This document shows positions 323 through 57,081 of a stretch of DNA of 64,000 nucleotides, piece by piece. Below the pieces are notes generated by a model that saw only the letters and a list, made by a program, of their open reading frames with translations, ran no database searches and had not been told where the DNA came from. The position numbers and the translations under genes were made by a program. The stretch comes from a virus. The stretch lies in IMG/VR virus record IMGVR_UViG_3300036826_000261, positions 8,693-72,692 of that record; one strand, given 5' to 3'. Every line of letters begins with the position of its first letter. The stretch's first letter is position 1.

Positions 323-533
323 TATCGAGCTGCGTGTTGCGGCGGACGTCTTCGACCAGTGCATCCATGCACTGTTTCCATGTCGCATCGAAATTGGAAT
401 ACCACCCCGGATCACCGCGGAAGGTTGCAACGTGCGTGCGCTGCCATATCGGCAGCTTCATCAGCGCGGCCAGCAGGATCAGCGCTGCAAACATAAATAC
501 AATTCGACGAGTCAAGGACATGACGCCTCGCAA
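288..533 (-). CDS. small putative membrane protein
   Basis: N-terminal hydrophobic stretch IVFMFAALILLAALM; start uncertain. Confidence 0.35.
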   Translation of the reverse strand: MRGVMSLTRRIVFMFAALILLAALMKLPIWQRTHVATFRGDPGWYSNFDATWKQCMDALVEDVRRNTQLDITRAARHARRP

Positions 534-2226
534 GCCGAGTACAGAATTTCGTGGTTATAAAAACAACCGTGAGCCGGACCCGTGGTGGAAAGGCGGCGTT
601 GCCAAATCGCCAAAGGCCGATGCGAAGTCTAGACTGAAGCAGACGCGAGCACGAGCAGCCAAAGCGCGCGAGCGCGCGATGCCCGGCAAGAAGAAGCCGT
701 CCGGCGATCAGATCATCGGCTGGATACAGCGAAACTGCTACGTGCCTGAAGGCAAGCTGCTGGGGCAGAACTTTCAGCTCGACGAGTGGCAGAAAGACGA
801 GATCAGGCGAATTTACGACAACCCGCACGGCACGCGGCGCGCCATCCTGTCGTTTGCGCGCAAGAACGGCAAGACTTCGCTGGCTGCGGTGCTGATGCTG
901 GTCAATCTGTGCGGCATCTCCGCGATCCCGAACTCTTCGCTGTACTCGGCGGCGCAAAGCCGTGAGCAGGCGGCGCTGATCTTCAATCTGGCTGCCAAGA
1001 TCGTCCGCATGTCGCCGGGTCTGCGCGACGGCGTCACGATCAAGGATTCAACCAAGGAGATGTACTGCCACGAGATCGGCACGCGCTATCGCGCGCTGTC
1101 GGCGGAAGCGTCTACGGCGTTCGGTCTATCCCCGGTTTTCATCGTGCATGACGAGCTGGGGCAGGTTCGCGGGCCGCGCTCGCAACTGTACGAGGCGCTG
1201 GAGACCGCGACCGGCGCGCAGGAGAACCCGCTGTCGATCATCATTTCGACGCAGGCGCCGGCCGACACCGATTTGTTGTCGGTGCTGATCGACGACGCGA
1301 TCGCCGGCCACGATCCGCGCGTGATCTGCAAATTGTACACCGCGCCACTGACGGACGATCCGTTTGCCGAGGAGACGATCAAGATCGCCAACCCGGCCTA
1401 TGGGTCGTTTCTCAATCCGACCGAAGTCATGGCGATGGCCGACGACGCCAAGCGCATGCCGTCGCGCGAGGCCGAATATCGTAATCTGATTCTGAATCAG
1501 CGTGTCGAAGCAGTCGCGCAGTTCATCGCACCGACGGTGTGGGCGAAGTGCGGCGCGCCGGTCGGCGACATCACCAAGTGTCGCGAAGTCTACGGCGGGC
1601 TCGATCTGTCGGAAGCCAACGATCTCACCGCACTGGTGCTGATCGGCAAGATCGATCAGGTCTGGCACGTCAAGCCATACTTCTGGATGCCGGAAGCCAA
1701 CATCTTCGAGCGCGCGAAGACCGATCACGTGCCGTACGATCTATGGCTCAAGCAGGGTTATCTCGAAACGGTGGCCGGCGAAGCGATCACCTACGACGTG
1801 ATCGCGACGCGGGTCTGCGAAATTCTGGCCGAACACCCGGGCTTGCAGAAGATCGCTTTCGATCGCTGGAACTACCCGCAGTTTCGGCCTTGGTTGACGC
1901 ATCACGGTTGGACTAATTCAAAGATTGATCAAAAATGGGTCGAGTTTGGCCAAGGTATCCAGAGTATGTCACCGGCTCTGCGCGAGTTGGAAAGCCGGAT
2001 TCTGCGGCAGGAGATCGCGCACGGAAATCATCCTGTGCTTAATATGAACGTAGCCAACGCGGTTGTTGAAGGAAACAAAGACGCTGCTTTCACCAAAGAT
2101 TCTTCGACGCGCAAGTTGTCTAAGAAGCGTTCGAATGGCCGCATCGACGGCTTGGTAGCTTTGACAATGGCCATTGGTATCGCGCCGATGGCTGCAAAAG
2201 TAGACATCTCCGCTTTGATAGGGTAA
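520..2226 (+). CDS. terL: terminase large subunit (Terminase_1, cos-type family)
   Basis: Walker A ARKNGKT, Walker B VHDE, ISTQ coupling motif, nuclease motifs GGLDLS..D and RIDGLVA; start placed at ATG 520 after AAGGA. Confidence 0.95.
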   Translation: MTPRKPSTEFRGYKNNREPDPWWKGGVAKSPKADAKSRLKQTRARAAKARERAMPGKKKPSGDQIIGWIQRNCYVPEGKLLGQNFQLDEWQKDEIRRIYDNPHGTRRAILSFARKNGKTSLAAVLMLVNLCGISAIPNSSLYSAAQSREQAALIFNLAAKIVRMSPGLRDGVTIKDSTKEMYCHEIGTRYRALSAEASTAFGLSPVFIVHDELGQVRGPRSQLYEALETATGAQENPLSIIISTQAPADTDLLSVLIDDAIAGHDPRVICKLYTAPLTDDPFAEETIKIANPAYGSFLNPTEVMAMADDAKRMPSREAEYRNLILNQRVEAVAQFIAPTVWAKCGAPVGDITKCREVYGGLDLSEANDLTALVLIGKIDQVWHVKPYFWMPEANIFERAKTDHVPYDLWLKQGYLETVAGEAITYDVIATRVCEILAEHPGLQKIAFDRWNYPQFRPWLTHHGWTNSKIDQKWVEFGQGIQSMSPALRELESRILRQEIAHGNHPVLNMNVANAVVEGNKDAAFTKDSSTRKLSKKRSNGRIDGLVALTMAIGIAPMAAKVDISALIG

Positions 2227-2232
2227 ACAAAT

Positions 2233-2301
2233 AACGCAACGGCTGGAGCACTTGCAATGCTCCAGCCGTCACTTGACCTAGCAACCTGTCTGGAGGCTGC
2301 C
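2233..2301 (+). promoter_or_regulatory. structured leader of homing endonuclease gene (copy 1)
   Basis: 12-bp stem ACGGCTGGAGCA/TGCTCCAGCCGT, then GCAACCT..AGGCTGC stem overlapping the GGAGG RBS; near-identical copy at 36315-36385. Confidence 0.7.
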
Positions 2302-2838
2302 ATGCCCAAAGCTTTGGATATCACAAATCGACGTTTCGGACGACTCATCGCCCGCAAGATAGCGGGTCATGTGCGCGGGAACGGAGGCCAAAGTTATATC
2401 GTTTGGTTATGCGATTGCGATTGCGGCAATCGAACCAAAGTAACTACAGCCAATCTTAGACAGCCGGGCGGCACAAAGTCCTGTGGTTGTTATTGGCTGG
2501 ACCTTCAAGGGTCTCGTAATCTTCGTCACGGTCAAACCCGCAATGGAAAAATTAGCGGTGTGTACAACAGTTGGGCCGGCATGATCTAACGTTGTACTAA
2601 TCCCAATTCTCAAGTTTGGAAATACTACGGTGGGCGCGGCATCAAGGTTCACAAGCCTTGGTTTCGTTTCGAAGCTTTCTACGCGTACGTTGGCGATAAG
2701 CCAAAAGGCAAGACGCTAGACCGCTACCCGAATCAAAACGGCGATTACAAACCGGGCAATGTTCGCTGGGCTACGCCAGCAGAGCAGGCCAATAATCGAC
2801 GTCTTCGAAAAAGAGGTTACAGGAGAAAATTCAAATGA
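2302..2838 (+). pseudogene. HNH-type homing endonuclease with in-frame premature stop
   Basis: WLCDCDCGN..TKSCGC N-terminus; TAA at 2587-2589; the same frame continues RCTNPN..YYGGRGI..TLDRYPNQNGDYKPGNVRWAT to TGA 2838. Confidence 0.85.
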
Positions 2839-3908
2839 ATCGCCACGTGATCGAGCACACGGCGCCACCGGAGCGTGGTTTTCGACGCAATCCGCTGCCT
2901 GTCTCACAAGGCAACTGTTTTGTGCGCATGCTGACCGCCAAGGTGATTGGCCAGTTGCGCAACATGGCACCGATCTCGGTCGCCACCGGAATGTGGCCGA
3001 GCGACAGAATCACAGCCGAGATTTTGGAACGCGCATCGAGCGCGCCGGCCATGACGGGCGTAGCCGGTTGGGCTGCCGAGCTGACACAGCGGTTGGTCAG
3101 TGACGCGATCTCGATCATGAGTGGCGTATCGGCCGGCGCCGAAGTGCTGCGGCGCTGCTTGATGCTGGCGTTGGATCGCAACGGCTTTTTGGTGCCGGGT
3201 CTGGTGGTTGACGCTACCGGCGCTTCGTTTGTCGCTGAAGGTGATCCGATCCCGGTGCACAATCTTGCGACGACGCCAGGATCGATTCCGTTTACCAAGC
3301 TCGCCAGCATCGCGGTTTTGACAAGAGAAATGGTTGAATCGAGCAACGCCGAAGCGCTGATCGGCAACGCGCTGGGACGTGCAGCCGGTTTGGCGCTCGA
3401 TGCCGTGCTGTTTTCCAGCGCCGCCGCGACATCAGCAGCGCCGGCTGGCTTGCGCAACGGCATTGGTGCTTTGACGGCAAGCGTCAACACCGATCCGTTC
3501 GCAGCGGTGTTCGAGGACATGGCAACGCTGTTCAACGCGGTCGGTCAAGTCGGCGGTGCCGGCCCGTTTGTTCTGGTTGCGGGTCCCGGCCGCGCGATAA
3601 CCTTTTCCATGCGGGTCGGCGGTGGCGCACAGTTATCGGTTTATCCGGTGGCGTCCAGCTTCGTCGGCAATGACCTGATCGCGATTGCACCACAGGCGAT
3701 CGCGGCTGCGCTCGGCACGGAGCCGGTCATCGAGGCAGCAAAGGCCGGTGTTTTGCATATGGACACGGCGCCATCGGCGTCGCCTTCGGCCGGCGCGCGA
3801 AAAGAGATGTATCAAACCGATTCGATTGCAGTGAAAATGCACTGGCCAGTATCTTGGCTTTTGCGCGATGCGCGCGGCGTGGCGTGGCTGACGCCGGCCT
3901 GGAAGTGA
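2835..3908 (+). CDS. HK97-fold major-capsid-like paralog
   Basis: Aligns by eye with the capsid part of 10168-12456 (APAMTGVAGWAAEL vs APAMTTVAGWAQEL; FVAEGDPIPV vs FVGEGMAIPV; YQTDSIAVKM vs FQTDSLALRM). Confidence 0.85.
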   Translation: MNRHVIEHTAPPERGFRRNPLPVSQGNCFVRMLTAKVIGQLRNMAPISVATGMWPSDRITAEILERASSAPAMTGVAGWAAELTQRLVSDAISIMSGVSAGAEVLRRCLMLALDRNGFLVPGLVVDATGASFVAEGDPIPVHNLATTPGSIPFTKLASIAVLTREMVESSNAEALIGNALGRAAGLALDAVLFSSAAATSAAPAGLRNGIGALTASVNTDPFAAVFEDMATLFNAVGQVGGAGPFVLVAGPGRAITFSMRVGGGAQLSVYPVASSFVGNDLIAIAPQAIAAALGTEPVIEAAKAGVLHMDTAPSASPSAGARKEMYQTDSIAVKMHWPVSWLLRDARGVAWLTPAWK

Positions 3909-3913
3909 TCACC

Positions 3914-5107
3914 ATGAAGCATTTCGCGCAGTTCGAGCCGCCATCGCTGCCGCCGGTGGTCGTGGTCGAGCACACGCCGAAAGGCTGGCGCGGTCTGACG
4001 GCGGACGGTCAGGTGCTCAACGTGGAATCCGCCAACGGGCATCCGGTCGAGATTCCATTCGGCGGCAATCTCGCGGTGACACGCGCGGGTCAGATCATCG
4101 GCTATCGCGATATTCCGGAGCAACCGACGCCTGGGCTGATCGACAGCTACACGCGCTGCTATGATTTGGCGCTGCGCGCCGTGAGAGCCGGCAGGCTCGA
4201 CATGGCACTGACCCACGTCGAGACCGCGATATCGTTCGTGCCGACGCTAACCGCGCGCTACAACCGCGGCATGATCCTGCTCGAACTCGGACGCTGGCGC
4301 GAAGGCTTCGACGACTACGCGTACGCGATGGAGTACGACACGTCGCCGTACATGCGTCCGGAGTATCGCACGTGCCTCGAATGGGGATTGAAGCGCTGGC
4401 GCGGCGAGGACCTTCGCGGCAAGCGCATTCTGCTGGTGCACGATCACGGGTTCGGCGATTCGATCATGATGCTGCGCTATGTGCGCGTGCTTCAGGCGAT
4501 GGGCTCCAACGTCACGTTGTGGTTGCCGCCGGAGCTGCAACGGCTGGCGGCGCCGCTGGCGAAGGTCACCGGCGAGATCGTGCACGCGGATTATTTCTGT
4601 TCGCTGCTGTTCCTGCTGCACACGCTGCAGCAGACACCGGCGACGATTCCACTGCAGCCGTATCTGTCGGTCGATACGAAATTGCGCGGCAAGTGGCAGG
4701 ATCGGGTTGGGCACAAAAAGCCGATCGGCGTGGCGTGGACGCCGGGCCGGACGCACGATGGCGACTACCCGCGCGCCGTTCCGCTCGAATTGTTGCGCAA
4801 GGCGTTGCCTGACGCCGCGCTGGTCAGCGTGCAGCAGCAGGGCGCTGAAGAAGCGCAGGCGTTCGGTGTCGAGCACTACACGTTCGAGGATTTCGCCGAC
4901 TGTGCGGGACTGATGGCATGTTGCGATCGGATCATCACCGTAGACACCGCCGCCGTCCACCTCGCGGGCGCTGTCGGTCATTCGCGGATTTCGCTGTTGC
5001 TTGGTCATTGGGCAAGCTGGCGCTGGTTGTCGCCGTTGTACGAGAACGTTTGCATTTATAGGCAGGCGCCGCCGGGTGATTGGAGCGGCGTGCTGAAATT
5101 GCTTTGA
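3914..5107 (+). CDS. TPR-containing glycosyltransferase (GT-B, GT9-like C-terminus)
   Basis: TPR-like YNRGMILLELGRWREGF, then W.GEDL.GKRILL..DHGFGD.IM..RY and IITVDTAAVHLAGA motifs. Confidence 0.8.
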   Translation: MKHFAQFEPPSLPPVVVVEHTPKGWRGLTADGQVLNVESANGHPVEIPFGGNLAVTRAGQIIGYRDIPEQPTPGLIDSYTRCYDLALRAVRAGRLDMALTHVETAISFVPTLTARYNRGMILLELGRWREGFDDYAYAMEYDTSPYMRPEYRTCLEWGLKRWRGEDLRGKRILLVHDHGFGDSIMMLRYVRVLQAMGSNVTLWLPPELQRLAAPLAKVTGEIVHADYFCSLLFLLHTLQQTPATIPLQPYLSVDTKLRGKWQDRVGHKKPIGVAWTPGRTHDGDYPRAVPLELLRKALPDAALVSVQQQGAEEAQAFGVEHYTFEDFADCAGLMACCDRIITVDTAAVHLAGAVGHSRISLLLGHWASWRWLSPLYENVCIYRQAPPGDWSGVLKLL

Positions 5108-5224
5108 GTGACGGGGTTGGGGAATCCCGGGGAGCCATCATGAACAGCAACCGTCTGATTCGACGACAGCGGCAACGCGAAGATTTTCTCGATCGTTTTC
5201 TCGACGAGATCGACGATAAAACAG

Positions 5225-5773
5225 TTGATGAGGACGTGCGGTTTGATCTGGTATCAAAACAGGTTCGAGGTGCTGCGCCACGCGGCGGCGATAACACCCA
5301 CTGAAGGTCTGGTGCTTGAGTTCGGCGTGGCTTCAGGAAGCACTGTTCGTTGCTTAGCCGAAACACCAGCATTGTGCGAGCGATCCATCTACGGGTTCGA
5401 TTCGTTCAAGGGTTTGCCAGAACCATGGGCGTCGTATCCGGTCGGACATTTCGCTTGCGACATTCCAGAGGTGCCAAAAAATGTCGGGCTCGTGGTGGGG
5501 ATGTTCGAACATACGATCAAGCCGTTTTTGCTGGTTCATCCGAACAACGTTGCGCTGCTTCATATTGATTGCGATCTCTACTCCAGCGCTCGGTGTGTAC
5601 TTGAGCAGCTCTCACCCCGAATCGTCTCCGGTACTGTTATCGTGCTAGACGAGTATTTCATTCTTGTTGAGCACGAGCAGCGGGCTTTCAACGAGTGGCT
5701 GTCGAAGACGGGCCGCAGGTTTCGCAAGGAAGCGCGATCTGTCGAACAGTTGTGCGGCGTGATCGAAAGCTAG
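5225..5773 (+). CDS. class I SAM-dependent methyltransferase (TylF/MycF-like)
   Basis: LEFGVASG, GFDSFKGLPE, LHIDCDLYSS and VLDEY motifs. Confidence 0.85.
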   Translation: MMRTCGLIWYQNRFEVLRHAAAITPTEGLVLEFGVASGSTVRCLAETPALCERSIYGFDSFKGLPEPWASYPVGHFACDIPEVPKNVGLVVGMFEHTIKPFLLVHPNNVALLHIDCDLYSSARCVLEQLSPRIVSGTVIVLDEYFILVEHEQRAFNEWLSKTGRRFRKEARSVEQLCGVIES

Positions 5774-5810
5774 AAAAGCCTTCTCCCGGAGTTGCAATAG
5801 CGGGCGGTCA

Positions 5811-8222
5811 ATGCTAGATAACAGGCATGGACGAGAACAAACAAACAACCGAGACGGCGGAAGAGCGCGAGAAGTTGTTGAATCAGCTCGACGCGACTGG
5901 CCGCAGTCTGGTCGAGCGGATTCTGGCGCAGCATCCGGAGCTGACGGCGGCGGAAGCGATCGCGCACGTCCAGGAGATGGGCGGGCTGTAGTCTCGCGCG
6001 GCGGCGGTGCTGGCCACGATGTGTCCGGCGAGCCGCGCGACGAGCAGGGCCGTTGGACCGATGGCGGCGGCGATGGTAGCGACAGCTATTCCAGCAGCCC
6101 GCCGAGTTCACGTGAAAAAGACAAGCATGTCGCAGCGGTCTACAAGCCGACTGGCGCTGCGGTTACCGCAGCCAAGAAAGCCGGTCGCACGCCGCTGGAA
6201 TTTCATCAACTGACGGCGGACGGTAATCAGCGTTTCCACGATGCGATCATTAAGGCGAAAGAAAACCTGAAGTTCGGCGCGTCGGTGCATGCCTACGATG
6301 CCGCTGACTATCGCGGCATGAAGACCTACGTGACGCCCGACGACAAGGCCGGCTTCGCGCTCAAGCCGGACGGTGATATCGTATCCGCATTCAGTCAGTC
6401 GAAGGCCAAGCGCGCCGGTGATTCGATTTTGGCGTTGGCGGTGCAGCACGGTGGCCGCAAGCTCGACGCGTTCGACACGGTGCTGCCGGCGATCTACAGC
6501 GACAACGGCTTTCGCGCAGTGGCGCGGATTCCCTGGAACGAAGAGTACAAGCCGGCCGATTGGGACAAGAACACGTTCAAGAAATTCAACGGCGGCAAGC
6601 CGGATGTCGTGTTCATGGTGCACGATCCGGCAAACGCCGCGCCCTACAAGCCGGGCGACGGCAAGCGCGTGTCGAGTTACGAGGAAGGTGTTGCCGAGCA
6701 GGACAAGGCGCTGAAGGAGATCGAGAAGGGGCGCGAGCATCCGGGCAAGGGCTATTCCCAGAACGCCTATGTCGATCATCAGGGCGTGATTCACACCTCG
6801 AACGTTTATGACGCGCAGCGCGCGCTGTTCGAGGATCGCAAGGTCGAGCTGACGCAGGTCAAGCAGATATCGACCTTGATCAAGCGGCTCGGTGAGACCG
6901 CCGCGGAGATGGCCGAGCACGGTGAAACTGCGCCGACCTTCAATCTCTGCAACGTCAGCGTCAAGGGCACCAACTTGTTTTGCGCCGACCAGATTGGCAT
7001 TCCGCGCGTCGAGATGCCGGTGATCCGCGCCGGCAAGACCAAGGACTTCATCAAGCATCTCAAGAAGCTTGGCTACAAGATCGAAGAGACCAAGGAGGAA
7101 GCGCGCAATCTTCGTGCCACACAGAACGAGATCAGTGGTACTAAGGTCGCTGCCGCGATGGCGCGGATCAAGCAGGAAGGTTTCTACAAACGTCTCGTGG
7201 TGTCGCGTGATGATTACATTCTCGATGGTCATCATACCTGGGCTGGTCAGCTCGGGCTCGACGCCAAGGATGGCGATCTCGAAGATGACGGCCGCGAAGT
7301 CAAGATCGCGCGGGTCGATATCTCGATCACCAAGTTGCTCGAAGAAGCCGAGAAGTGGACCGGCGGCGCCGGCAAGAAGCCGGCCAGCGAAGCGCCAAAG
7401 GGTTATCAGTTCGTCACGCTGCGCGAGGCGCAGCGGTTACTGGACGTGACGACCTACCAGAAGTTCGTCCTGATTGCGGGGCAGTTTCTTACAGCCAATG
7501 GCCATCTCGCGCGTGGCATCGAGAACATTCGGATCACGGTGCCGATTGCGCGCGAGTTTGACGACGCGCTGCATCCGCATCAGCCGGCCGGGCAGGGTGG
7601 TGGTCAGTTCGCGCCGACCGGCGGCAGTGACAAGCCGGCGGCGCCGAAGAAGCCGGCGGCGTCGCCGGCAGCGGCAGCAGAACCGGCTCAACTACAACCT
7701 GAACCTCCGGGATACGGATTGTCGCCAGCCGAGCACGACAAGCTCGATGATTGGACAATGGGCGAGCCGAAATCGGCGGCCTACAGCAAGATGCGCAAAG
7801 ACCCGAAGATGATCGCGATCATGGCCAAGCTGCCCAAGTACGAGGGCACGGTTTATCGCGGCACATCGTTCTACAAAGGCAAGATCGGTTCGATCAAGGT
7901 CGGGAGCATCGAAGACATCATCGGCAAGACGTTCGATATCTCCAAGCTGTCATCGTCATCGACTGATGGTGCAAAGGCTGCGGAATTTGCTGTAAATGAC
8001 GTGCTGAGCCCGACGACCGGTGAGCTGAAAAAAGGCTATACGGCCGTGGTTTTCAAGATGGATCAGATGAGTGGACATCAGGTGCCGTCGGATATCGATC
8101 GCGGCGTCGAGAAAGAAGTCGTGCTGATGCCGCACACTACTTTTCAGGCGATCAATGTCGCCGATATGACGGAAGCGACCAATGGTGTGAAGTACAAAGA
8201 AGTCACGATGAGGGAAGTATGA
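5811..8222 (+). CDS. polyvalent protein: EPRDEQGRWT motif + GNAT-like + ParB-like + C-terminal ADP-ribosyltransferase
   Basis: KLDAFDTVLPAIYSDNGF; LRATQNEI..VVSRDDYILDGHHTW (ParB/Srx-like); VYRG..SSSS..EKEVVL (R-S-E ART); true start may be later (GTG 6021). Confidence 0.75.
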   Translation: MLDNRHGREQTNNRDGGRAREVVESARRDWPQSGRADSGAASGADGGGSDRARPGDGRAVVSRGGGAGHDVSGEPRDEQGRWTDGGGDGSDSYSSSPPSSREKDKHVAAVYKPTGAAVTAAKKAGRTPLEFHQLTADGNQRFHDAIIKAKENLKFGASVHAYDAADYRGMKTYVTPDDKAGFALKPDGDIVSAFSQSKAKRAGDSILALAVQHGGRKLDAFDTVLPAIYSDNGFRAVARIPWNEEYKPADWDKNTFKKFNGGKPDVVFMVHDPANAAPYKPGDGKRVSSYEEGVAEQDKALKEIEKGREHPGKGYSQNAYVDHQGVIHTSNVYDAQRALFEDRKVELTQVKQISTLIKRLGETAAEMAEHGETAPTFNLCNVSVKGTNLFCADQIGIPRVEMPVIRAGKTKDFIKHLKKLGYKIEETKEEARNLRATQNEISGTKVAAAMARIKQEGFYKRLVVSRDDYILDGHHTWAGQLGLDAKDGDLEDDGREVKIARVDISITKLLEEAEKWTGGAGKKPASEAPKGYQFVTLREAQRLLDVTTYQKFVLIAGQFLTANGHLARGIENIRITVPIAREFDDALHPHQPAGQGGGQFAPTGGSDKPAAPKKPAASPAAAAEPAQLQPEPPGYGLSPAEHDKLDDWTMGEPKSAAYSKMRKDPKMIAIMAKLPKYEGTVYRGTSFYKGKIGSIKVGSIEDIIGKTFDISKLSSSSTDGAKAAEFAVNDVLSPTTGELKKGYTAVVFKMDQMSGHQVPSDIDRGVEKEVVLMPHTTFQAINVADMTEATNGVKYKEVTMREV
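5827..5991 (+). CDS. small helical hypothetical protein (54 aa, not in ORF track)
   Basis: MDENKQTTETAEEREKLLNQLDATGRSLVERILAQHPELTAAEAIAHVQEMGGL; overlaps the 5' extension of the next ORF in another frame. Confidence 0.5.
   Translation: MDENKQTTETAEEREKLLNQLDATGRSLVERILAQHPELTAAEAIAHVQEMGGL
6030..6071 (+). repeat. coding repeat EPRDEQGRWTDGGG, second copy at 8309-8350
   Basis: Identical peptide and near-identical DNA in two adjacent genes. Confidence 0.85.
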
Positions 8223-9808
8223 GCGAAGACAGGCTCGGCGCTCGCATCACGGAAGAGACCGACGACACGGAATGGCTCACGCCGGTCGGGCAGAAGTTTG
8301 ATCCGAACGAACCGCGTGATGAGCAGGGTCGCTGGACCGATGGCGGCGGCAGTGATGACGCCGGGTCGAGCAAGCCGGTCGGCGGTGGCGGCAAGGAAGG
8401 CGGTCAAGGCAAGAAAAAGGTCGAGAAGCTCGCCGATTTCCAGAAGGACGGCGTGCGTATCGATGCCAGTACGGCGGCCGACGACGCCAAGGCGCAAAAA
8501 TTTCTAGAGCGCTGGAATGATAAGATCGGCGAGGCGCCGGCCGAGTTCAAGCAGGAATTTCTCGGTGGCCTCAACGGCACGATGAAAGTTGGTTACGACG
8601 AACGCGAAGACCGAATCGATATCGACGGCCAGATCAAGGACGACAACGGCAGCACGATCGCGGATTATACGCGTTATGTTTTTCCTGGCCAGAACCGGGC
8701 CTATTCCGCTTACTTTGAAGTCAAACGCGCAGCGCAGCACGGAAAAGGTGGCCAGAACATCGGCAAGACGCTGCTTAAAGCCAACGTCGAGATGTATCAG
8801 AAGCTCGGTCTCGACAAGGTTACGGTGTCGGCCAATCTCGATGTCGGCGGCTACGCCTGGGCGAAATACGGCTACGTGCCGACGCGCAGTTCATGGGATT
8901 CATTGCGCGGCGCGATCGCCGACAAGCTGAACGACAACGGTGATCGCGCCAGCCATCGCGCGTCAGGTTCGGGTTATACGCCAGAAGAGTGGGATGCGAT
9001 CGGTAACGACGATCAAAGCCGGATCGAGCGGGCATGGATGGAGTCGGTGCGCGACGAGTTCGTTCAATCCGAAGAGCAGAACTACCGCGAGAGCGGGCAG
9101 GCGATGGAAGATGCCAAGCGCCAGCTCGCCGACAATTTCGATCCAACCGACAAATGGGCCGTGGCCGCGCTCAAGACGTGGCGCGAAGGGCTCGACGACG
9201 AAGGCAAGAGCATTCCCTACACCAACGAGGAATTGCTTAACGCGGTGACGATAGACGATTACTCGTCGCGCTATGGCGAGGGTCGTGACGATCCTGACAT
9301 CGAGATCGACGACAAGCAGCTTCCTGATTTGCAGCCTGGACAGGGGACGCTGCCCGGCATCGAGGTAGCGCCTGCGCTTAGCGATGACACACGCGACAAA
9401 ATCGTTAGTGTGCTTACTGAGGCGTTCAACGAACAGGCTGAAACCGACGCCGACAACGCTGATTATACGCCGGATGATCACTACATTCGCGAGTCCATGG
9501 GCGAGTACTGGGATTCGATGAGCGATCGCGACAAGTACGCCTGGGCCGAACGCAACAGCGAGTTGCCGGAATATCCGCTCGATGACGACGAGGATGTCGA
9601 GCCGGTCGAAGTAGCGGATGACACACAGCGCAGTGCGCTGTTGAAATTGACCGATAGCAATAATCCGAAGGCGCTGTGGGCGATCGCCGATTCACCGGCG
9701 GGCAAGGATTTGCTGCTCAATACCACTTGGTCCGGTGTGCTTGATCTCAAGGACAAGGACACCATGGATCGTTTCAACGCCTACGTCGGCAAAAAGAAGG
9801 CCGCTTGA
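8219..9808 (+). CDS. polyvalent protein with FDPNEPRDEQGRWT motif and GNAT-like acetyltransferase domain
   Basis: Q..G..IGKTLLKANVEMYQKLGLDKVTVSANLDVGGYAWAKYGY; long acidic insertion. Confidence 0.7.
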   Translation: MSEDRLGARITEETDDTEWLTPVGQKFDPNEPRDEQGRWTDGGGSDDAGSSKPVGGGGKEGGQGKKKVEKLADFQKDGVRIDASTAADDAKAQKFLERWNDKIGEAPAEFKQEFLGGLNGTMKVGYDEREDRIDIDGQIKDDNGSTIADYTRYVFPGQNRAYSAYFEVKRAAQHGKGGQNIGKTLLKANVEMYQKLGLDKVTVSANLDVGGYAWAKYGYVPTRSSWDSLRGAIADKLNDNGDRASHRASGSGYTPEEWDAIGNDDQSRIERAWMESVRDEFVQSEEQNYRESGQAMEDAKRQLADNFDPTDKWAVAALKTWREGLDDEGKSIPYTNEELLNAVTIDDYSSRYGEGRDDPDIEIDDKQLPDLQPGQGTLPGIEVAPALSDDTRDKIVSVLTEAFNEQAETDADNADYTPDDHYIRESMGEYWDSMSDRDKYAWAERNSELPEYPLDDDEDVEPVEVADDTQRSALLKLTDSNNPKALWAIADSPAGKDLLLNTTWSGVLDLKDKDTMDRFNAYVGKKKAA

Positions 9809-29371: not shown

Positions 29372-29562
29372 AAAGCATGAAGGGTGACCCGTTCCCAGAT
29401 CACCCTTCACTTGTGCCGACCATGACGAGACCGGCCCGGCCAGACGGCGCCAAGGCCAAACCCCGACAAACCACGCCTGCCAAGTCTGGCTTTGCTTGGC
29501 CAAATCTTACCGCGCCAGACCTTGTCGCGCCGAACCGCGCCTGTCCTCGCCTGCCATGCCTA
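29372..29562 (-). ncRNA. stand-alone GGY-NN guide-like RNA (mini-array 2) with terminator
   Basis: Minus strand TAGGCAT GGCA, 14 pentamers, GGCA, then a second unit; stem TGAAGGGTGA/TCACCCTTCA followed by TGCTTTT. Confidence 0.8.
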
Positions 29563-29572
29563 AGAATTGGTG

Positions 29573-29601
29573 TAGGTAGTTTATTTGTTTGCGACTGTCA
29601 A
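29573..29601 (-). promoter_or_regulatory. sigma70-like promoter for mini-array 2
   Basis: TTGACA-N17-TACCTA on the minus strand, about 10 nt before TAGGCATGG. Confidence 0.65.
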
Positions 29602-29618
29602 GTTCGGGAATCGTTGTA

Positions 29619-49863: not shown

Positions 49864-50106
49864 ATGTTGAGTCTCGCTGTCGTGCTGATCAGTCTGCACG
49901 CGCCGAACGGTGACAAGATCGATGTCAATCCGGACAGCATCACCAGCATGCGCGACCGCGCGGCGCAGCACGATGCCGACGAGAGCTTGGTGGCCAAGGG
50001 CATCGAATGCATGATCAATCTGAGCGACGGTAAATATGTTTCGGTGACCGAGCACTGCGACAAGGTGCGTGAACTGATCAAGGCTGCAACGGGAGCGGAC
50101 AAATGA
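49864..50106 (+). CDS. small FlbD-like protein
   Basis: L..PNG..I.VNPD.I..M...C.I.LSDGK...V.E....V..LI. Confidence 0.5.
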   Translation: MLSLAVVLISLHAPNGDKIDVNPDSITSMRDRAAQHDADESLVAKGIECMINLSDGKYVSVTEHCDKVRELIKAATGADK

Positions 50107-50943: not shown

Positions 50944-51258
50944 ATGTACACGCCAGAGCTGGCGCGACGCACCATCGTGGTGCTCGCGATGCTCGTCGTA
51001 TTGGCCTCCGGCAGCGTGCGCGGTGATTCGCCTCTGCATCTGATTCACGTGCACGGCCCGGACGGCGAGCAGGAAATCGACGTCAATGTGCAGGAGATTT
51101 CCTCGATCCGACAGCCGCGCGAGAACACCGAACAGCATTTCGCCAAGGGTATGAACTGCATGATCTACATGACCAACGGCAAGTTCATTCCGACATCGGA
51201 AACTTGCAAAGAGATCGTGAAGTTGATCGCCGCACTCGATGCGACGACCGACAAGTAA
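50944..51258 (+). CDS. exported FlbD-like paralog of 49864-50106
   Basis: Signal-like N-terminus then LIHVHGPDG..IDVN..I.SIR..C.IYMTNGK....E.C.EI.KLI. Confidence 0.5.
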   Translation: MYTPELARRTIVVLAMLVVLASGSVRGDSPLHLIHVHGPDGEQEIDVNVQEISSIRQPRENTEQHFAKGMNCMIYMTNGKFIPTSETCKEIVKLIAALDATTDK

Positions 51259-51751: not shown

Positions 51752-52486
51752 ATGGCGACCATGTCGAAAAAGGCAATCATCACCTGGGAGACCGACGACG
51801 GCAGCGGGCCGCCGGTCGGCATCTGGCCGGAGCCGGGCTATCCGGCGCACCCGATTGCGCCGGGCGGACCGCCGCCGGGCGTGTGGCCGGGACCGGGCTA
51901 TCCGGCGCACCCGATCGTGATTCCGCCGGACAAGCCCGGTGAGCCGCCGACCGTGATCTGGCCGGGGCCGGGCTATCCGGCGCATCCGATCGCGCCGGGC
52001 GGACCACCGCCGGGTTATTGGGGTGGCGTGGCGCCGCCGTTGCCGACACATCCGATCGCACCGGGTGGACCGCCGCCGGGCATCTGGCCGGGGCCGGGCG
52101 TGCCGACGCCGCCGATCCATTATCCGCCGATCATCTGGCCGCAGCCGCCGGAGGGCGGACCGCCGATCGCGATCGATCCGGGACATCCCGAACATCCGAT
52201 CGTAATTCCGACACCGCCCGGCACGGTGTGGCCGCCGGATGCATCTATCGAGCATCCGATCGTGCTGCCGCTGCCGCCGGAAATCTGGCCGAAGCCGGGG
52301 GTGCCGACGCATCCGATCGTGATTCCGCCGGAGCAGCCACCGGAGAAGCCGCAACTGATCACGTGGTATGCCGGCTGGTCGGACAAGACCGGTTGGGTCG
52401 TGGTCGGCGTGCCGAACGTGCCGCATCCGACGCCGTCGAAGGCCGGCGGACCGGGCGGACCGGGCGGGCCGAAGAAAGGGCCATGA
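51752..52486 (+). CDS. proline-rich repeat protein
   Basis: Repeats of WPGPGYPAHPI(A/V); AAGGAG RBS. Confidence 0.75.
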   Translation: MATMSKKAIITWETDDGSGPPVGIWPEPGYPAHPIAPGGPPPGVWPGPGYPAHPIVIPPDKPGEPPTVIWPGPGYPAHPIAPGGPPPGYWGGVAPPLPTHPIAPGGPPPGIWPGPGVPTPPIHYPPIIWPQPPEGGPPIAIDPGHPEHPIVIPTPPGTVWPPDASIEHPIVLPLPPEIWPKPGVPTHPIVIPPEQPPEKPQLITWYAGWSDKTGWVVVGVPNVPHPTPSKAGGPGGPGGPKKGP

Positions 52487-52528
52487 CGTCGCCGTAAACA
52501 ACCGTTTCAACCTTCCTCCCTAGACTTG

Positions 52529-52565
52529 AGCCGGGTGGCCCTCCAAGCGCCCGGCTTTCTTTTTT
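52529..52565 (+). terminator. intrinsic terminator ending the late operon
   Basis: AGCCGGG/CCCGGCT stem + TTCTTTTTT. Confidence 0.75.
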
Positions 52566-52670
52566 GCCTGCACGATGTTTTTGCCGGCGAAAAATTTTCT
52601 TGACTTTTCGCCAAACCCGTCGCTCGCTTCCCGGATTCGTAAAATCAAAATGCTAAAGGGAGAGAAGCAA

Positions 52671-53549
52671 ATGGCGAAAAAGGCACCCGTCAGTGAAATC
52701 ATCGAAATCCAAGCTATCGAAATGGCGTCGCTGGATTTCCATGTGGTCGGCACCAGCCCGTTCATCATGCATCGCTTCAGTCAGAAGGCGTGGCAGGAAT
52801 TGCTGCTGCCGTCGATCCGCGAAAACCGCGCTAGTCTCGAACAGAAGCTCAAGCATGATCCGTATGCAGAATTTCGTGGCGCGTTCTATCGCAACAGCAA
52901 TCCGCGCGCCAAGACGGCGTACCATATTCCAAACGGCGCGTTTCACGGCGCGATCGCCAGCGCCGCGCTCGACATGCCGGGTGCCAAGAAGGCGCAGATC
53001 GAGCGGTTGACCAAGATCACCAGCGTCAACATCGAACTGTATGGCATCCCGAAAATCTTTTGCAGCATGGTGCGTAACAGCGACATCTCGCGCACGCCAG
53101 ATGTGCGCACCCGGCCGATCTTCCCGCGCTGGGCGTGCACGGTTTCGGTGCGCTACGCGAAGAACGCGTTGACGGCCAAAGCCGTCGCCAATCTGTTCGG
53201 CGCGGCGGGCGAGATCATCGGCATCGGTGATTGGCGCGGTCAGAAGGGCGGACCGTTCGGCGCGTTCCGCACCAACGTGTCGGTGAACGATAAAGAGTTC
53301 AAGAGCATCTTGAAGGAAGGCCGCGTCGCGCAATTGAAAGCTTACGACAAACCGTTGTTCTACGATGAAGACACGGAAGAAATTTTAACGTGGTTCGCCA
53401 CCGAGGTGCGCCGCCGTGAGTTGGAAGGCAAGATGCGCAGCGATAACGTCAAGGAGTTTCGCGTTATCACCGAGCGCGGCAAGGAGCGCGGCAACGGCGA
53501 GTTGGTGAGCCTTGACGACAAGCGGCGGACCCGTCGAAAGGCCGCGTGA
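52671..53549 (+). CDS. stand-alone Cas7/RAMP-like RNA-binding protein (Vipr-like effector)
   Basis: VVGTSPFIMH first strand, IP..AF..AI..A, R.RP.FP.W, and C-terminal Gly-rich loop GIGDWR..KGGPFGAF typical of RAMP-fold proteins; no other cas genes in the window. Confidence 0.75.
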   Translation: MAKKAPVSEIIEIQAIEMASLDFHVVGTSPFIMHRFSQKAWQELLLPSIRENRASLEQKLKHDPYAEFRGAFYRNSNPRAKTAYHIPNGAFHGAIASAALDMPGAKKAQIERLTKITSVNIELYGIPKIFCSMVRNSDISRTPDVRTRPIFPRWACTVSVRYAKNALTAKAVANLFGAAGEIIGIGDWRGQKGGPFGAFRTNVSVNDKEFKSILKEGRVAQLKAYDKPLFYDEDTEEILTWFATEVRRRELEGKMRSDNVKEFRVITERGKERGNGELVSLDDKRRTRRKAA

Positions 53550-54043
53550 TGGCGAAAGCCACCAAACACGACCGCATCAAAGCGGCGTTGGAAGCGATCA
53601 GGCGCTCGCATCGCGGGCGCTTGACGGCGCGGGCCGTGGTCGAGGCGGCCAAAAATCCTAGGCACCCGTTGCACAGTGAATTTGAATGGAACAACCAGAA
53701 AGCAGCGGATCAGCAACGCTTGGAGCGTGCGCGCGAACTAATCAGATACGTCACGGTCGTGGTCGTTGATGCAACGCGTAAAGTCGAAACACGATTTTAT
53801 GCGCACGATCCGCGAACGCCGCATCGTGAAGGCTATGTCAGCATCTTGGAGATGAACCGCCGCGATGCTGAACAAGATGTGGTCAACGCTATCGCGATCT
53901 GTCAATCGACGATCGATCGCGCGCTCAGCAAAGCGGAATTTCTCAGCGCGAAGCATCGTGGTGTTTCACGATTGTTGAAAAATGCAGTTGCTACCCTTGC
54001 CGCCGCGCATGATCTGCTCGAAGGCTCGGCGGCAGCGGCGTGA
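53549..54043 (+). CDS. accessory protein coupled to the RAMP-like gene
   Basis: LT..AVVEAA..P.HPLH..FEW....AA...RL..AR.LIR motif; start overlaps the RAMP stop. Confidence 0.7.
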   Translation: MAKATKHDRIKAALEAIRRSHRGRLTARAVVEAAKNPRHPLHSEFEWNNQKAADQQRLERARELIRYVTVVVVDATRKVETRFYAHDPRTPHREGYVSILEMNRRDAEQDVVNAIAICQSTIDRALSKAEFLSAKHRGVSRLLKNAVATLAAAHDLLEGSAAAA

Positions 54044-54048
54044 AGTCA

Positions 54049-54269
54049 TAGGCATGGCAGGCTAGGCAAGGTGCGGCCCGGCCGGAGTAGGTTCGGTGCG
54101 GCAAGGCAGGCATGGCCCGGGAGACGCGGTGAAGCGTGTCCGTGATCTGGTAGCGTCGGGTAAGGCGGCGTTGGATGGGGTGAGGCGAGGCAGGCTTGGT
54201 CAGGTCTGACGAGACTGGGCGCGGTAGGTTTTGGCGCGGTACGGCAAGGCGTGATGCGGTAAGGCAGGC
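54049..54269 (+). ncRNA. GGY-NN pentamer array, block 1 (3 units)
   Basis: Starts TAGGCATGGCA; GGCA separators at 54056, 54105, 54189, 54263 (spacings 49/84/74 = 5n+4). Confidence 0.85.
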
Positions 54270-54527
54270 ATGGCCAGAAACACAGCGGATAAGGTTCTCG
54301 AAAACAAGTTGCGGCTGATCGCCAAACGGCGGGGTTTGTTTCTTTCGAAATCCCGTCGTCGCGATCCGTTTGCGCTCGACTTTGGTTATGAGTTGAGAGA
54401 CGCGCAACAGCACGTCATCGAAACAGCGTGCAGTCTTACTCGAATCGAAAACTTGTTAGCTCTCGGTCGGACGGGGCGGAAACGTTTAACAGTCGAAGGA
54501 TGGCGTCACATCATCCTTGGTAAGTAG
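54270..54527 (+). CDS. small basic protein embedded in the array
   Basis: ENKLRLIAKRRGL.L.KSRRRDP.ALDFGY; non-repetitive, lower-GC insert. Confidence 0.65.
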   Translation: MARNTADKVLENKLRLIAKRRGLFLSKSRRRDPFALDFGYELRDAQQHVIETACSLTRIENLLALGRTGRKRLTVEGWRHIILGK

Positions 54528-56488
54528 GCATGGCAGGCGTGGCCGGGCCGGGTTGTCCCCGGTGTGGCAGAGCATGGCAGCGCAGGGTTGACATGGCAGG
54601 GCAGGCAGGGTCCGTCGTGGTCGCGCGGGATTGGGCGGGGCAAGGCACGGCACGATGCTGGTCTGGCGAGGCGTGGCAGGCATGGCTGGATCAGGCGTGA
54701 CGAAGCTTGGTGTAGCTAGGCCGGGTGCAGTGTAGGCATGGCGAGGCAGGCGCGGCGGGACAAGGTCCGATATGGCGTGGCGCGGTCTGGTTCGGTCTGG
54801 CCGGGTTTGGCAGGCAAGGTGCGTCGAGGCCAAACATGGTGTGACAAGGTACGGCGCGGCCTGATCTGGGCTCGACTGGGCAGGCGCGGTGGGTTCTGGC
54901 TCGACATGGTTAGGCGAGGCCCGGTGATGCCCGGCATGTTGAAGTGCGTCCTGGCAGGCGTGGCGGGGGTGCGTGCGAGGCGGGACCGGGCAAGGTCGGG
55001 CACGTTATATGGTCTGGCTGGGCACGGCTTGGCGGGTCACGGCAAGGCACGGCCGGCAAGGTTTGTCCGGAACCGGTTTGGCTTGGCGAGATGCGATTAG
55101 GCGAGGCGAAGCGAGGCCGGCTAAGCGTGACTTGGTCGGGTAGACGTGGCCGGGCACGGTAGCGGCGTGGATCGGCCGGCGACGCTAGGCTTGTCGTCGA
55201 TCGGCATGACATGGCGCGGCACGGCGAGGCGTGGTTCGGCCGGCGCGATTAGGTGTGGTCGGAATCGGCATGGCTCGGTGTCGCGTGGTCTGGCGTGGCT
55301 CGGCTGGGCCGGCTGGCGGGATTTGGCTTGATGCGGTCAGGCAAGGTCCGGCCCGGATCGGCGCGGCATGGCCGGCGTGGTCTGGCTTGAAGTGGTTGGG
55401 ATTAGGCGTGGCGCGGTATGACGCGGTGAGGCAGGCGGGGAGTGGCTAGACGTGGCTGCGCGCAACAAGGTCGGTCAAGTCCTGGTTTAGGCGTGGTGTG
55501 ACGCTGTGAGGCAGGCAAGGCCCGGACGGGCAAGACCGGATTAGGCATGGCGATGCTGGGCCGGCGGGGCACGGTGGAGGCCCGGACGGGCACGGCCGGG
55601 CAAGGCGTGGCAATGCAAGGCAGGCAAGACTTGGCAGGGCGCGGCCCGGCGAGAAATGGTTTGGCGCGGCGCGGCAGGCATGGCAGGGCGATACATGGTC
55701 AGGCGAAGCACGGCACAGCAGGGCAGGCGGGACTGGGTGTTCTGGGCACGGCTGGGCACGGCCGAAGCATGGCCGGCGAGGCTTGTCCTGGCACGGCGGG
55801 GCTGAGGCGTGGCAGCGTTTAGGCGCGGCCGGCGAGGCTTGTCCTGATTCGGCGGGGCTCGGCTTAGGCGCGGCCGGGTCGGTCACGGCAAGGCAGGCAC
55901 GGCTAGGCGTGGCAGGGAGCGGCAACGCCGGGTCGGGCGTGGCTGGGCTAGGCGACGGCGAGGCGAGGCGTGGTGCGGCAGGCGCGGCATGACAAGGCGC
56001 TGTGAGACCCGGCTTGGCAGGGTGCGGTACGGCATGGCTCGGCAGCGCTAGGCTTGGCAGGCACAGGTGATGCGGCGCGCGACAAGGCGGGACAGGGCGA
56101 GGCCGGCGCGGCATGAAAAGGCGCGGCGCGTTCGGGTGCAGCGCGGCGGGGTTGCGGCAAGGCACGGCTCGGCAGGACCGGCGGGGCTGGGCGTGTCTGG
56201 GCACGGCTCGGCGCGGCACGGCACGGTCCGGCAACGCCGGCAGCGCTGGGCGAGACATGGCATGGCTTGGCGGGGCTGGACACGGTGAGGCGAGGCAGGC
56301 GCGATCTGGCGTGGTTTGGCGTGGCGGGGCGAGGTACGAGCTGGGCGAGGCGAGGCAGGCGTGGTCGGGCGCAACGCGATGTGGTGTGACTGGTCGCGGC
56401 TCGCTGCGGTACGGCCCGGCAGGCGGGACTGGGCGTTGCTGGATCAGGTTCGGCCCGGCATGGCTAGGCGTGGCAGGCGGCGCAGGCG
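54525..56488 (+). ncRNA. GGY-NN pentamer array, block 2 (about 30 units)
   Basis: Continuous 5-nt periodicity of GG(C/T)NN with GGCA/GGCC tetramer separators about every 45-85 nt; only low-complexity spurious ORFs. Confidence 0.9.
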
Positions 56489-56522
56489 CTGATTATCCGT
56501 TAGAAAAAAGGAATCCCAACTG

Positions 56523-56846
56523 ATGGACGACAAGGATTTCGTACGTTTTGTCGAGCTGGCCGAGCAGGAGCTTGTTGCGCGCGGCCAGATCATCGAAGCT
56601 GGTTTTTCCGGCTTCAAGCTCATCTTCGAGCAGAACTGGTCGCCCGAAACCGAACGGCTGAGCCGCATCGCGTTCTATGCCGGCGCACAGCATCTGTACG
56701 TGACCCTGATGCGGATCATGGATCAGGGCATCGAACCGACCGAGGCTGACATGGCGCGGATGGCGCGGGTGCACGATGAGCTTGCGCGCTTCGAAGAAAC
56801 CATTTTGCAACCGGCAGCGAAGAAGTACAGAGAACGCAGAAACTGA
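56523..56846 (+). CDS. hypothetical protein
   Basis: AAGGA RBS; R.AFYAGA.HL motif. Confidence 0.65.
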   Translation: MDDKDFVRFVELAEQELVARGQIIEAGFSGFKLIFEQNWSPETERLSRIAFYAGAQHLYVTLMRIMDQGIEPTEADMARMARVHDELARFEETILQPAAKKYRERRN

Positions 56847-56883
56847 TCACACTCATGCCATCCAGACTTCGACGATCTTGGGG

Positions 56884-57081
56884 TCATGAAACGCGGTCGT
56901 CAACATCGGCGCCTCTCACGGATGTCGCGCAAGCGATCAGCGCGCAGCCGAGATGTTCGGCCTGCTGCGGTGTCAGCCACACGGTGTCGCTCGGCAGATC
57001 GATATACACATAGCCCTCGCCGTTGTCACAGCACGTGACAGAAGCTTCGGGATCGCAGTAGCTGGCGCGTTCGCGCGTCAT
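56884..57081 (-). CDS. hypothetical protein
   Basis: V.LTP.QA..LG.ALI pattern. Confidence 0.5.
   Translation of the reverse strand: MTRERASYCDPEASVTCCDNGEGYVYIDLPSDTVWLTPQQAEHLGCALIACATSVRGADVDDRVS

Follow-up and report, generated by a model that had tools for sequence, protein, structure and literature searches.

The viral DNA analysed here (the window: 64,000 nucleotides, bases 8693-72692 of the single 72,692-base virus record IMGVR_UViG_3300036826_000261, rated 98% complete) carries at 52671-56488 a gene for a RAMP protein, a partner gene and a long tract of alternating GGY and NN bases. We explain this locus, with high confidence, as a Viral Interference Programmable Repeat (VIPR) system with a staggered array, carried by a probably virulent soil myophage. 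VIPR systems, to which the original prediction likened the locus, do exist in print: the available text of the preprint (10.64898/2026.04.26.720920) defines them by a Vipr RAMP protein, a vap gene and guide RNAs (vrRNAs) of alternating GGY/NN, and distinguishes seven types. The locus therefore belongs to an already published kind (2026). What we add are target predictions on conserved motifs of the cyclic-oligonucleotide-based antiphage signalling system (CBASS).

The tract displays the peak at 5 nucleotides that was expected of it. Lag-5 identity reaches 0.47 in 54044-54269 and 0.48 in 54528-56488, against 0.25-0.27 in three control coding stretches of the window, the two VIPR genes included. 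Compared with 200 dinucleotide-preserving shuffles, section 1 of the array gave 0.466 (shuffled mean 0.308, maximum 0.38, z 5.3) and section 2 gave 0.478 (mean 0.317, maximum 0.343, z 17.3). When the whole 72.7-kb genome was scanned for GG at lag 5, only this region emerged on the plus strand and one short stretch (~29431-29609) on the minus strand. A vrRNA region calls for at least 4 tandem YNNGG/GGYNN units beside vipr. Among the 394 in-phase pentamers here, G occupies position 1 in 89% and position 2 in 81%, position 3 holds C in 271, T in 96, A in 15 and G in 12 (93% pyrimidine), and all 16 NN dinucleotides are present. The original prediction of about 2.2 kb of GG(C/T)NN thus holds for the pentamers and their periodicity, while the single uninterrupted block does not, since a non-periodic open reading frame (ORF) at 54270-54527 splits it. 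With ~2.2 kb of pentamers, the array surpasses those of all 80 related viral loci, the two longest of which measure 2.0 and 1.7 kb.

Phase tracking resolved the array into 44 in-phase segments with 42 phase changes (27 of -1, 11 of +1 and 4 other). The -1 changes fall at 4-nucleotide tokens, mostly GGCA followed by GG, and GGCAGG is found in 30 copies in the array against 31 in the remaining 61.5 kb. Its spacings, said at the outset to follow 5n+4, do so in 14 of 29 cases here and more clearly in the arrays of relatives (324 of 539, with peaks at 49, 54, 59, 44 and 64), in which GGCAGG, with 676 copies in 44.9 kb, far outnumbers every other GGNNGG. Units of about 8-14 pentamers are joined by a 4-nucleotide GGCA, and the last G of each terminal GGCAG also opens the following unit. 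Alignment of 30 junctions revealed no conserved sequence other than GGCA/GG and the pentamer phase. An Rfam search at E<=1 over 52000-57000 gave no hammerhead or other family, the only sub-threshold matches, suhB/mmgR and SorY, lying on the terminator upstream of the locus. Without a conserved 3' tail, the units fit the staggered architecture, which the legend of fig. S18 of the preprint (10.64898/2026.04.26.720920) describes as units overlapping by one base, and not type II.

As had been proposed from its Gly-rich loop, the first gene of the locus encodes, judged by profile alignment, a minimal RAMP protein homologous to agp039 of phage SUSP1. A profile of 37 homologs aligned with agp039 by hhalign (probability 95.9%, E 6.4e-9, 91 columns), with the motifs RPIF..W and G[IV]GDWR..FG.F in common, and it gave no alignment with the neighbouring SUSP1 gene agp038. 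The SUSP1 locus was placed at the sole lag-5 periodic tract of NC_028808.2. We infer that agp039 is the Vipr of the published studies because it adjoins this only pentamer tract and because the cryo-EM residue numbers D177, W178, R179, R138 and C173 fit it. According to the available part of the cryo-EM preprint (10.64898/2026.04.26.720927), G1, G2 and Y3 are read by D177, W178, R179 and R138. These residues align to D187, W188, R189 and R148 here and are invariant in the 37 sequences. The N-terminal half lies outside the alignment; the cryo-EM residues H17, K33, E71 and M72 fall there, with no equivalents placed.

Homologs of vipr encode 278-300 residues with end-to-end coverage, and since they fully cover the 292-residue form, the start ATG at 52671 is favoured over that at 52575. 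A C-terminal helical extension of ~90 residues (about 205-292) is conserved in the clade and absent from SUSP1 Vipr. A tblastn search of Vipr against 50,697 phage records reached 12 of them at 23-31% identity (Gordonia, Mycobacterium, Pseudomonas, cyanophage), SUSP1 not among them, and Pfam gave no usable match for Vipr, Vap, ORF85 or ORF107.

The coupled accessory gene, vap, is also borne out: it encodes 165 residues, and a homolog stands directly 3' of vipr in 79 of 106 related loci. Vap matches phrog_15946 (E 2.4e-14). Its model (pLDDT 90.6) consists of an N-terminal helix-helix-helix-beta part and a C-terminal helical hairpin; the secondary structure, together with weak PadR/AphA-like rows, suggests that the N-terminal part is winged-helix-like. 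The listing of the fold search was filled by the C-terminal hairpin, and the matches in the viral library are uncharacterised proteins. The co-occurrence of such genes with pentamer arrays in other phages, which the original prediction proposed to examine, is widespread: a same-strand array lies within ~850 bases of the vipr homolog in 73 of 80 IMG/VR viral loci and an opposite-strand array in only 2 of 80, and the pair is also found in 17 of 24 genome loci. In IMG/VR, 163 relatives were found.

The carrier is probably a virulent soil myophage. PHROG matches include terminase, portal, major head, tail sheath, tube, baseplate, fibres and two endolysins, a structural set which identifies a myophage. 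Cas1, Cas2, tyrosine-integrase and serine-recombinase families had no match in the 98%-complete genome, whereas positive controls were detected. Since no integrase family matched, the phage is probably virulent. The lack of Cas1 and Cas2 matches agrees with the earlier statement that the array is not CRISPR (cas3, cas5 and cas6 were not searched individually).

Among known systems, the staggered VIPR of the preprint (10.64898/2026.04.26.720920) is, in its available text, the closest counterpart, with the same vipr, vap and downstream GGY/NN array on a phage; no hammerhead ribozymes lie between the units here. What differs here is the length of the array, which exceeds those of the related viral loci, the ORF that splits it and a solo unit 24.5 kb off. 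With the type II VIPR of SUSP1 (NC_028808.2; agp039 taken as vipr, agp038 as vap1) it shares the RAMP core, the G-loop, the D-W-R residues and the thumb Arg. Both are two-gene operons with arrays in virulent phages, probably so here, and both have a predicted code in which the one-nucleotide skips fall on wobble bases. On the other hand, SUSP1 Vipr has 195 residues against 292 here, where the extra conserved C-terminal helical part is found, and Vap is of another family, BLASTP giving no similarity between it and the gene that adjoins vipr in SUSP1. Moreover, as far as the published description available goes, SUSP1 vrRNAs are ~100-nucleotide units with an invariant pseudoknot tail, whereas the units here have only the GGCA junction, and SUSP1 targets are mostly a satellite. 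The backbone proteins of class 1 CRISPR-Cas (Cas7, Csm3, Cmr4) resemble Vipr in their RRM core, G-loop and thumb, in a fixed RNA step per subunit and in periodic base flipping. The VIPR step is nonetheless 5 nucleotides and not 6, with only 2 of 5 guide bases read, and the locus here has no repeat-spacer array and no Cas1/Cas2 match, its period being 5 and not 60-79 nucleotides.

By homology with the systems described in the available VIPR preprints, the array would be transcribed and cut into vrRNAs. Transcription of section 2 may start from a weak sigma-70-like site and section 1 may owe its transcription to read-through from vipr-vap, with the RNA presumably cut at or near the GGCA/GG junctions. 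Each unit would be coated by one Vipr protomer per pentamer, the GGY being held, the NN bases would pair with double-stranded DNA with every third target base skipped, and the bound Vipr filament would block transcription. That one subunit sits on each repeat, holds GGY and displays NN had been proposed at the outset and matches what the cryo-EM preprint (10.64898/2026.04.26.720927) describes in the part available. Since the skipped base is the wobble position of the codon, a guide would in effect read a peptide motif whatever the codon usage.

Targets were searched with the published rule of a 1-nucleotide skip, in which NN pairs are read and every third target base is skipped. For the 142 eight-NN windows of the array against 1.17 Mb of related loci, matches of at least 15/16 numbered 1, 11, 0 and 2 for skips of 0, 1, 2 and 3 respectively, 8 of the 11 stemming from guide unit 1, to which we return below. 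Of the 28 long guides, the other 27 did not stand out from shuffles or other skips, nor did the solo unit, in these loci and in five whole contigs of relatives, which carry no homolog of this phage's terminase. A second guide reached 16/18 with skip 1 (14, 15 and 14 with other skips) in the 1.17 Mb, where about one such match is expected by chance over 28 guides. Exact IMG/VR scans of four further guide patterns gave 0. Conversely, the relatives' guides had no match in this phage's genome in exact 9-NN windows. Between relatives such exact matches numbered 2 for skip 1, 0 for skips 0 and 2, and 23 for skip 3, the last being taken as array-to-array matches.

Two guides of this phage match CBASS genes. 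The CapV guide matches 20/20 the catalytic-Asp block ADGG[LF][WC]ANNP of CBASS patatin (CapV-like) effectors. Its 20-base pattern was found once in IMG/VR and at least 119 times in metagenomes; all 120 CapV sites among the matches listed are antisense and in frame, with the skips on wobble bases, and they comprise 106 distinct nucleotide versions. The peptides at these listed sites are ADGGLWANNP (83), ADGGFCANNP (36) and ADGGFWANNP (1). Among the 100 complete ORFs carrying the site, all 18 tested match PADLOC phospholipase 'Effector' models (E 1e-86 to 1e-160), and both ORFs compared with Pfam Patatin matched it. The site-bearing gene has, in 8 of the 9 loci tested, an E1-E2, E2 or oligonucleotide-cyclase (PADLOC 'Cyclase') gene as its neighbour. 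Next to one CapV-type CBASS operon (L126) lies a Shedu gene (SduA, DUF4263; 4850-5989), and this contig, by its gene content, carries a defence island.

The second guide, here called the Cap3 guide, matches the JAMM motif of JAB genes in the same CBASS loci at 19/22 with skip 1 and at 16 with other skips; the best of 20 shuffles reached 18, and eight sites are in frame. In L131 the ORF with the site matches Pfam Prok-JAB and lies beside an E1-E2 gene and a patatin gene, so we take it for Cap3. Homologs of CapV, Cap3, the cyclase and the M78 peptidase are encoded neither by this phage nor by its relatives.

The guides of relatives provide a further test. When 531 of them were compared with 120 CBASS loci in exact eight-NN windows, skips 0-3 gave 1, 11, 1 and 1 windows, from 1, 6, 1 and 1 guides. 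Four of the six skip-1 guides, from four phages, land on catalytic motifs of CBASS-locus genes: the same CapV block as above, matched on the other strand, a patatin block, the Cap3 block with ten exact NN, and HEXXH in a Peptidase_M78 gene that is CapP-like. The other two match unrelated genes (SNF2 helicase and ComEC) and look like chance. One contig, L221, is matched by guides of two different phages. At 333-3653 it carries a helix-turn-helix gene and a Peptidase_M78 gene, and in the opposite direction from these run a patatin gene and an ORF that by eye looks cyclase-like; on this gene order, the region is identified as a CBASS operon with CapH/CapP-type regulators. The divergent layout is that of CapH/CapP in the available texts of 10.1101/2022.04.27.489752 and 10.64898/2026.05.16.725639.

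On balance we lean towards the view that the CapV and Cap3 guides have evolved to target catalytic CBASS motifs, of the host or of rival mobile elements. That they would reduce CBASS immunity in vivo is a more tentative proposal, which we hold at somewhat less than an even chance. The same caution applies to the broader idea that part of the VIPR array, here and in relatives, may serve as an RNA-guided anti-defence weapon against CBASS operons. Such a weapon would block operons whose expression begins on infection, or those residing on rival mobile elements. It needs infection-induced or mobile-element-borne operons, because a virulent phage cannot remove pre-made effector; operons under CapH/CapP control are said to be induced on infection. 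The words "CBASS", "patatin", "anti-defense" and "counter-defense" are absent from the main texts, supplements not covered, of 10.64898/2026.04.26.720920 and 10.64898/2026.10.15.759431, and a library search of the cryo-EM preprint 10.64898/2026.04.26.720927 gave zero counts for "CBASS" and "anti-defense", supplements again not covered.

The anti-CBASS proteins known from phages (Acb1, Acb2 and the sponge proteins) act on the cyclic-nucleotide signal. The act proposed here would instead be RNA-guided binding of effector, Cap3 or regulator genes, with the same outcome if true.

Alternatively, the VIPR locus could be real and the CBASS matches a coincidence, or a by-product of codes rich in G, A, N and P, the guides being aimed at other mobile elements. 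We judge this unlikely, though a serious competitor. It draws on the fact that the metagenome matches come from one scan, without an empirical shuffled-guide null at that scale, that the Cap3 guide stands a single base above the best of its shuffles, that two of the six relatives' guides fall in the helicase and ComEC genes, and that a lytic lifestyle makes silencing of a pre-expressed effector of doubtful use. Against it, a fixed 20-base pattern has a chance of ~1e-12 per site, for which roughly 0.1 match in IMG/VR and about one in the metagenomes would be expected, whereas at least 119 contigs contain the motif, each time in the frame that skips the wobble base, which is not expected by chance. 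Coincidence would also have to account for the guides of four other phages on catalytic motifs of CBASS-locus genes, when skips 0, 2 and 3 yield one window each.

Several further observations weigh against the proposed VIPR and anti-CBASS readings. Some 11-19% of the in-phase pentamers deviate from GG at one position, and neither a conserved 3' tail nor a SUSP1-type pseudoknot is seen at the junctions. Of the 11 units of the CapV guide, 3 depart from GGY (GAT, GAT and GGA), and GGY>GAY and GGY>GGA substitutions abolish silencing in SUSP1 according to the available text of 10.64898/2026.04.26.720920. The Cap3 guide has no perfect target: its pattern gave 0 in the exact IMG/VR scan and, with up to 2 mismatches, 0 in 3 genomes and 0 in 401 genomes of one class. 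The 120 CBASS loci were gathered with this phage's own CapV guide, so that independent tests on that set come solely from the Cap3 guide and the guides of relatives. The matched loci come from metagenome and IMG/VR contigs and not from an identified phage host. In a genome without an integrase-family match, lytic silencing of capV would leave the pre-made effector protein in place. Finally, 25 of the 28 long guides are without a candidate target, and none was found for the solo unit or three further guides.

Guide unit 1, the first of the array, is likely to be aimed at the vipr genes of rival phages, as its target matches indicate. With skip 1 it matches 18/18 the vipr gene of the related phage L029 (6187-6212, peptide FAEYRGAFY), whereas skips 0, 2 and 3 give 14/18 and 30 shuffled guides no more than 15. 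All skipped bases lie on wobble positions. The match ends exactly at the GGCA junctions of the unit, which, together with the 5n+4 spacing in relatives, upholds the tetramers as unit boundaries. The guide reaches 17/18 in L036 and L037, which share one sequence, and 16/18 in L028. An exact scan across IMG/VR returned three contigs, that of L029 and two sharing one unrelated, out-of-phase site, which is at about chance level.

The same unit also matches the phage's own vipr gene at 16/18 (89%). This exceeds the 80% cut-off at which natural targets are called in the preprint (10.64898/2026.04.26.720920), which in its available text reports no self-hits at that level, and it counts against a guide meant for others. 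Unit 1 could then be a feedback guide on the phage's own vipr-vap operon, which its place directly 3' of that operon would suit. We consider this improbable. The perfect match is in another phage's vipr gene, followed by 17/18 in the two loci with one shared sequence. Both mismatches to the own gene fall on second positions of F/Y codons and therefore on read positions, and perturbed NN pairing is reported to abolish silencing in the available text of 10.64898/2026.04.26.720920. Furthermore, vipr-targeting vrRNAs are reported, within the text available, in 10.64898/2026.10.15.759431, where the self scores of vrRNA-targeting vrRNAs are below their non-self scores. The anti-vipr guide here likewise scores lower on self, a difference which that preprint reads, for its vrRNA-targeting vrRNAs, as avoidance of autoimmunity.

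The preferred reading, a guide against rival vipr genes, thus has parallels in the solo vrRNAs of the SUSP1 family as described in the accessible part of 10.64898/2026.10.15.759431, which likewise include a guide against a rival vipr and a stand-alone vrRNA off the main locus. In contrast to these, the anti-vipr guide here lies within the array of a VIPR-positive phage and belongs with another Vipr clade, and it reads the conserved internal motif FAEYRGAFY, whereas the vipr-targeting vrRNAs of the SUSP1 family read gene ends.

That the tract might be a decayed remnant, a simple-sequence recombination tract or a Gly/Ala/Arg-rich coding sequence, as many overlapping ORFs of 50-270 residues on both of its strands and variant joins inside it in metagenome contigs could suggest, is hardly credible, given units of 5n+4 bases that shift every reading frame, NN positions that use all 16 dinucleotides while GGY is held, the same architecture 3' of vipr-vap on the gene strand in 73 of 80 loci, and the exact match of unit 1 to its target between its junctions.

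The coordinates of these features are collected in Table 1.

Table 1. Features of the VIPR locus and related elements; positions are those of the window, except for the guides of relatives, which are numbered in their own loci.
Feature	Position	Strand	Description
VIPR locus as a whole	52671-56488	+	RAMP gene, partner gene and GGY/NN pentamers
vipr	52671..53549	+	292-aa minimal RAMP (Cas7-like) protein, G-loop GIGDWRGQKGGPFG
Own-vipr homologous site of guide unit 1	52863..52888	-	16/18 match
vap	53546..54043	+	165-aa accessory gene, start overlaps vipr stop
vrRNA array section 1	54044..54269	+	five in-phase segments; start motif TAGGCATGGCAGGC at 54049
Guide unit 1	54058..54108	+	nine pentamers between two GGCA/GG junctions
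85-aa ORF splitting the array	54270..54527	+	non-periodic 258 bp; GGTAAG..AGGCATGGC on both flanks
Sigma-70-like site TTAACA-17-CATCAT	54486..54514	+	consensus match only; 10 bases 5' of section 2 start motif
vrRNA array section 2	54525..56488	+	39 in-phase segments; start motif TAGGCATGGCAGGC
CapV guide unit	55313..55373	+	11 pentamers; antisense code [IM]A[DE]GG[FL][CW]A[NK][NK]P
Cap3 guide unit	56421..56477	+	11 pentamers; antisense code LTY[IM]G[DE][CW][HQ]T[HQ]P
Solo two-unit vrRNA-like element	29430..29562	-	start motif TAGGCATGGCAGGC; ~24.5 kb from main array
L035 guide	8087-8140		CapV DGG block (same block as this phage's CapV guide), sense strand
L051 guide	7827-7878		patatin LCIDGGGI block
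L067 guide	4845-4906		Cap3 YVGDWHTHP, ten NN exact
L041 guide	8576-8639		HEXXH motif of CapP-like Peptidase_M78 gene

The ORF that splits the array has its ATG and TAG both within array motifs and looks like an insertion at a boundary between units. The 106 related loci contain no homolog of it, its Atlas scores of 0.88 or less are sub-threshold and serve as leads only, and a 423-base contig in one soil run covers it more deeply than its neighbours. The solo element on the minus strand is linked to the array by the 14-base TAGGCATGGCAGGC, whose three exact copies in the genome start both array sections and this element. Past its end stands a 15-pair hairpin (29410-29377, minus strand) whose tail is rich in T. 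The element lies antisense to late genes, between tail-chaperone-like ORFs and a tape-measure-like ORF. The TTGACA box before it was seen by eye and not called by the sigma-70 scan.

Co-occurring strains or relatives seem to differ in the content of their arrays. Contigs from 4 soil-metagenome DNA runs agree with the array and then pass into other pentamer sequence, and one contig has an extra stretch of ~68 bases with an 85-base repeat in the array; the positions concerned are 54090, 56061, 56179 and 54745-54829. Among 6 soil-metagenome runs carrying this DNA none is listed as an RNA run.

In the genome, the lysis genes and a hairpin terminator are followed by vipr, vap and 2.4 kb of structurally non-coding DNA, the next gene starting at 56523. 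Upstream of vipr, the hairpin rich in G+C and ending in a T run (52496-52571, plus strand) is probably merely the terminator of the preceding gene; it remains below threshold for the alphaproteobacterial small RNA suhB/mmgR (32.8 bits, cut-off 41) and for SorY. Directly 5' of the locus lies a gene for a 244-residue proline-rich protein (51752-52486, plus strand) with many PGYPAHPI/GGPPPG repeats and no family match. Two small paralogous ORFs (49864-50106 and 50944-51258, plus strand) stand on either side of the second endolysin gene, one of them with a sub-threshold FlbD-like Pfam match (23.3 bits, cut-off 24.7). A motif of ~35 bases, TGGGCATGGCAGCC..(A)CA(A)GGTTGCTAGG, occurs in two copies on the minus strand, at 2308 and 36392, in the structural gene region.

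The locus offers a clean and very long example of a staggered array in a nearly complete, probably virulent phage. The natural targets of VIPR published so far, in the text available to us, are satellites, prophages, other VIPR systems and viruses. If the CBASS predictions are true, VIPR would extend from the war between mobile elements to a direct attack on bacterial immunity, and a single short RNA would cover many CBASS variants. Synonymous changes would hardly free a target gene from a codon-level guide placed on a catalytic motif, and such anti-defence use, if true, would explain the retention of the noncontiguous code.

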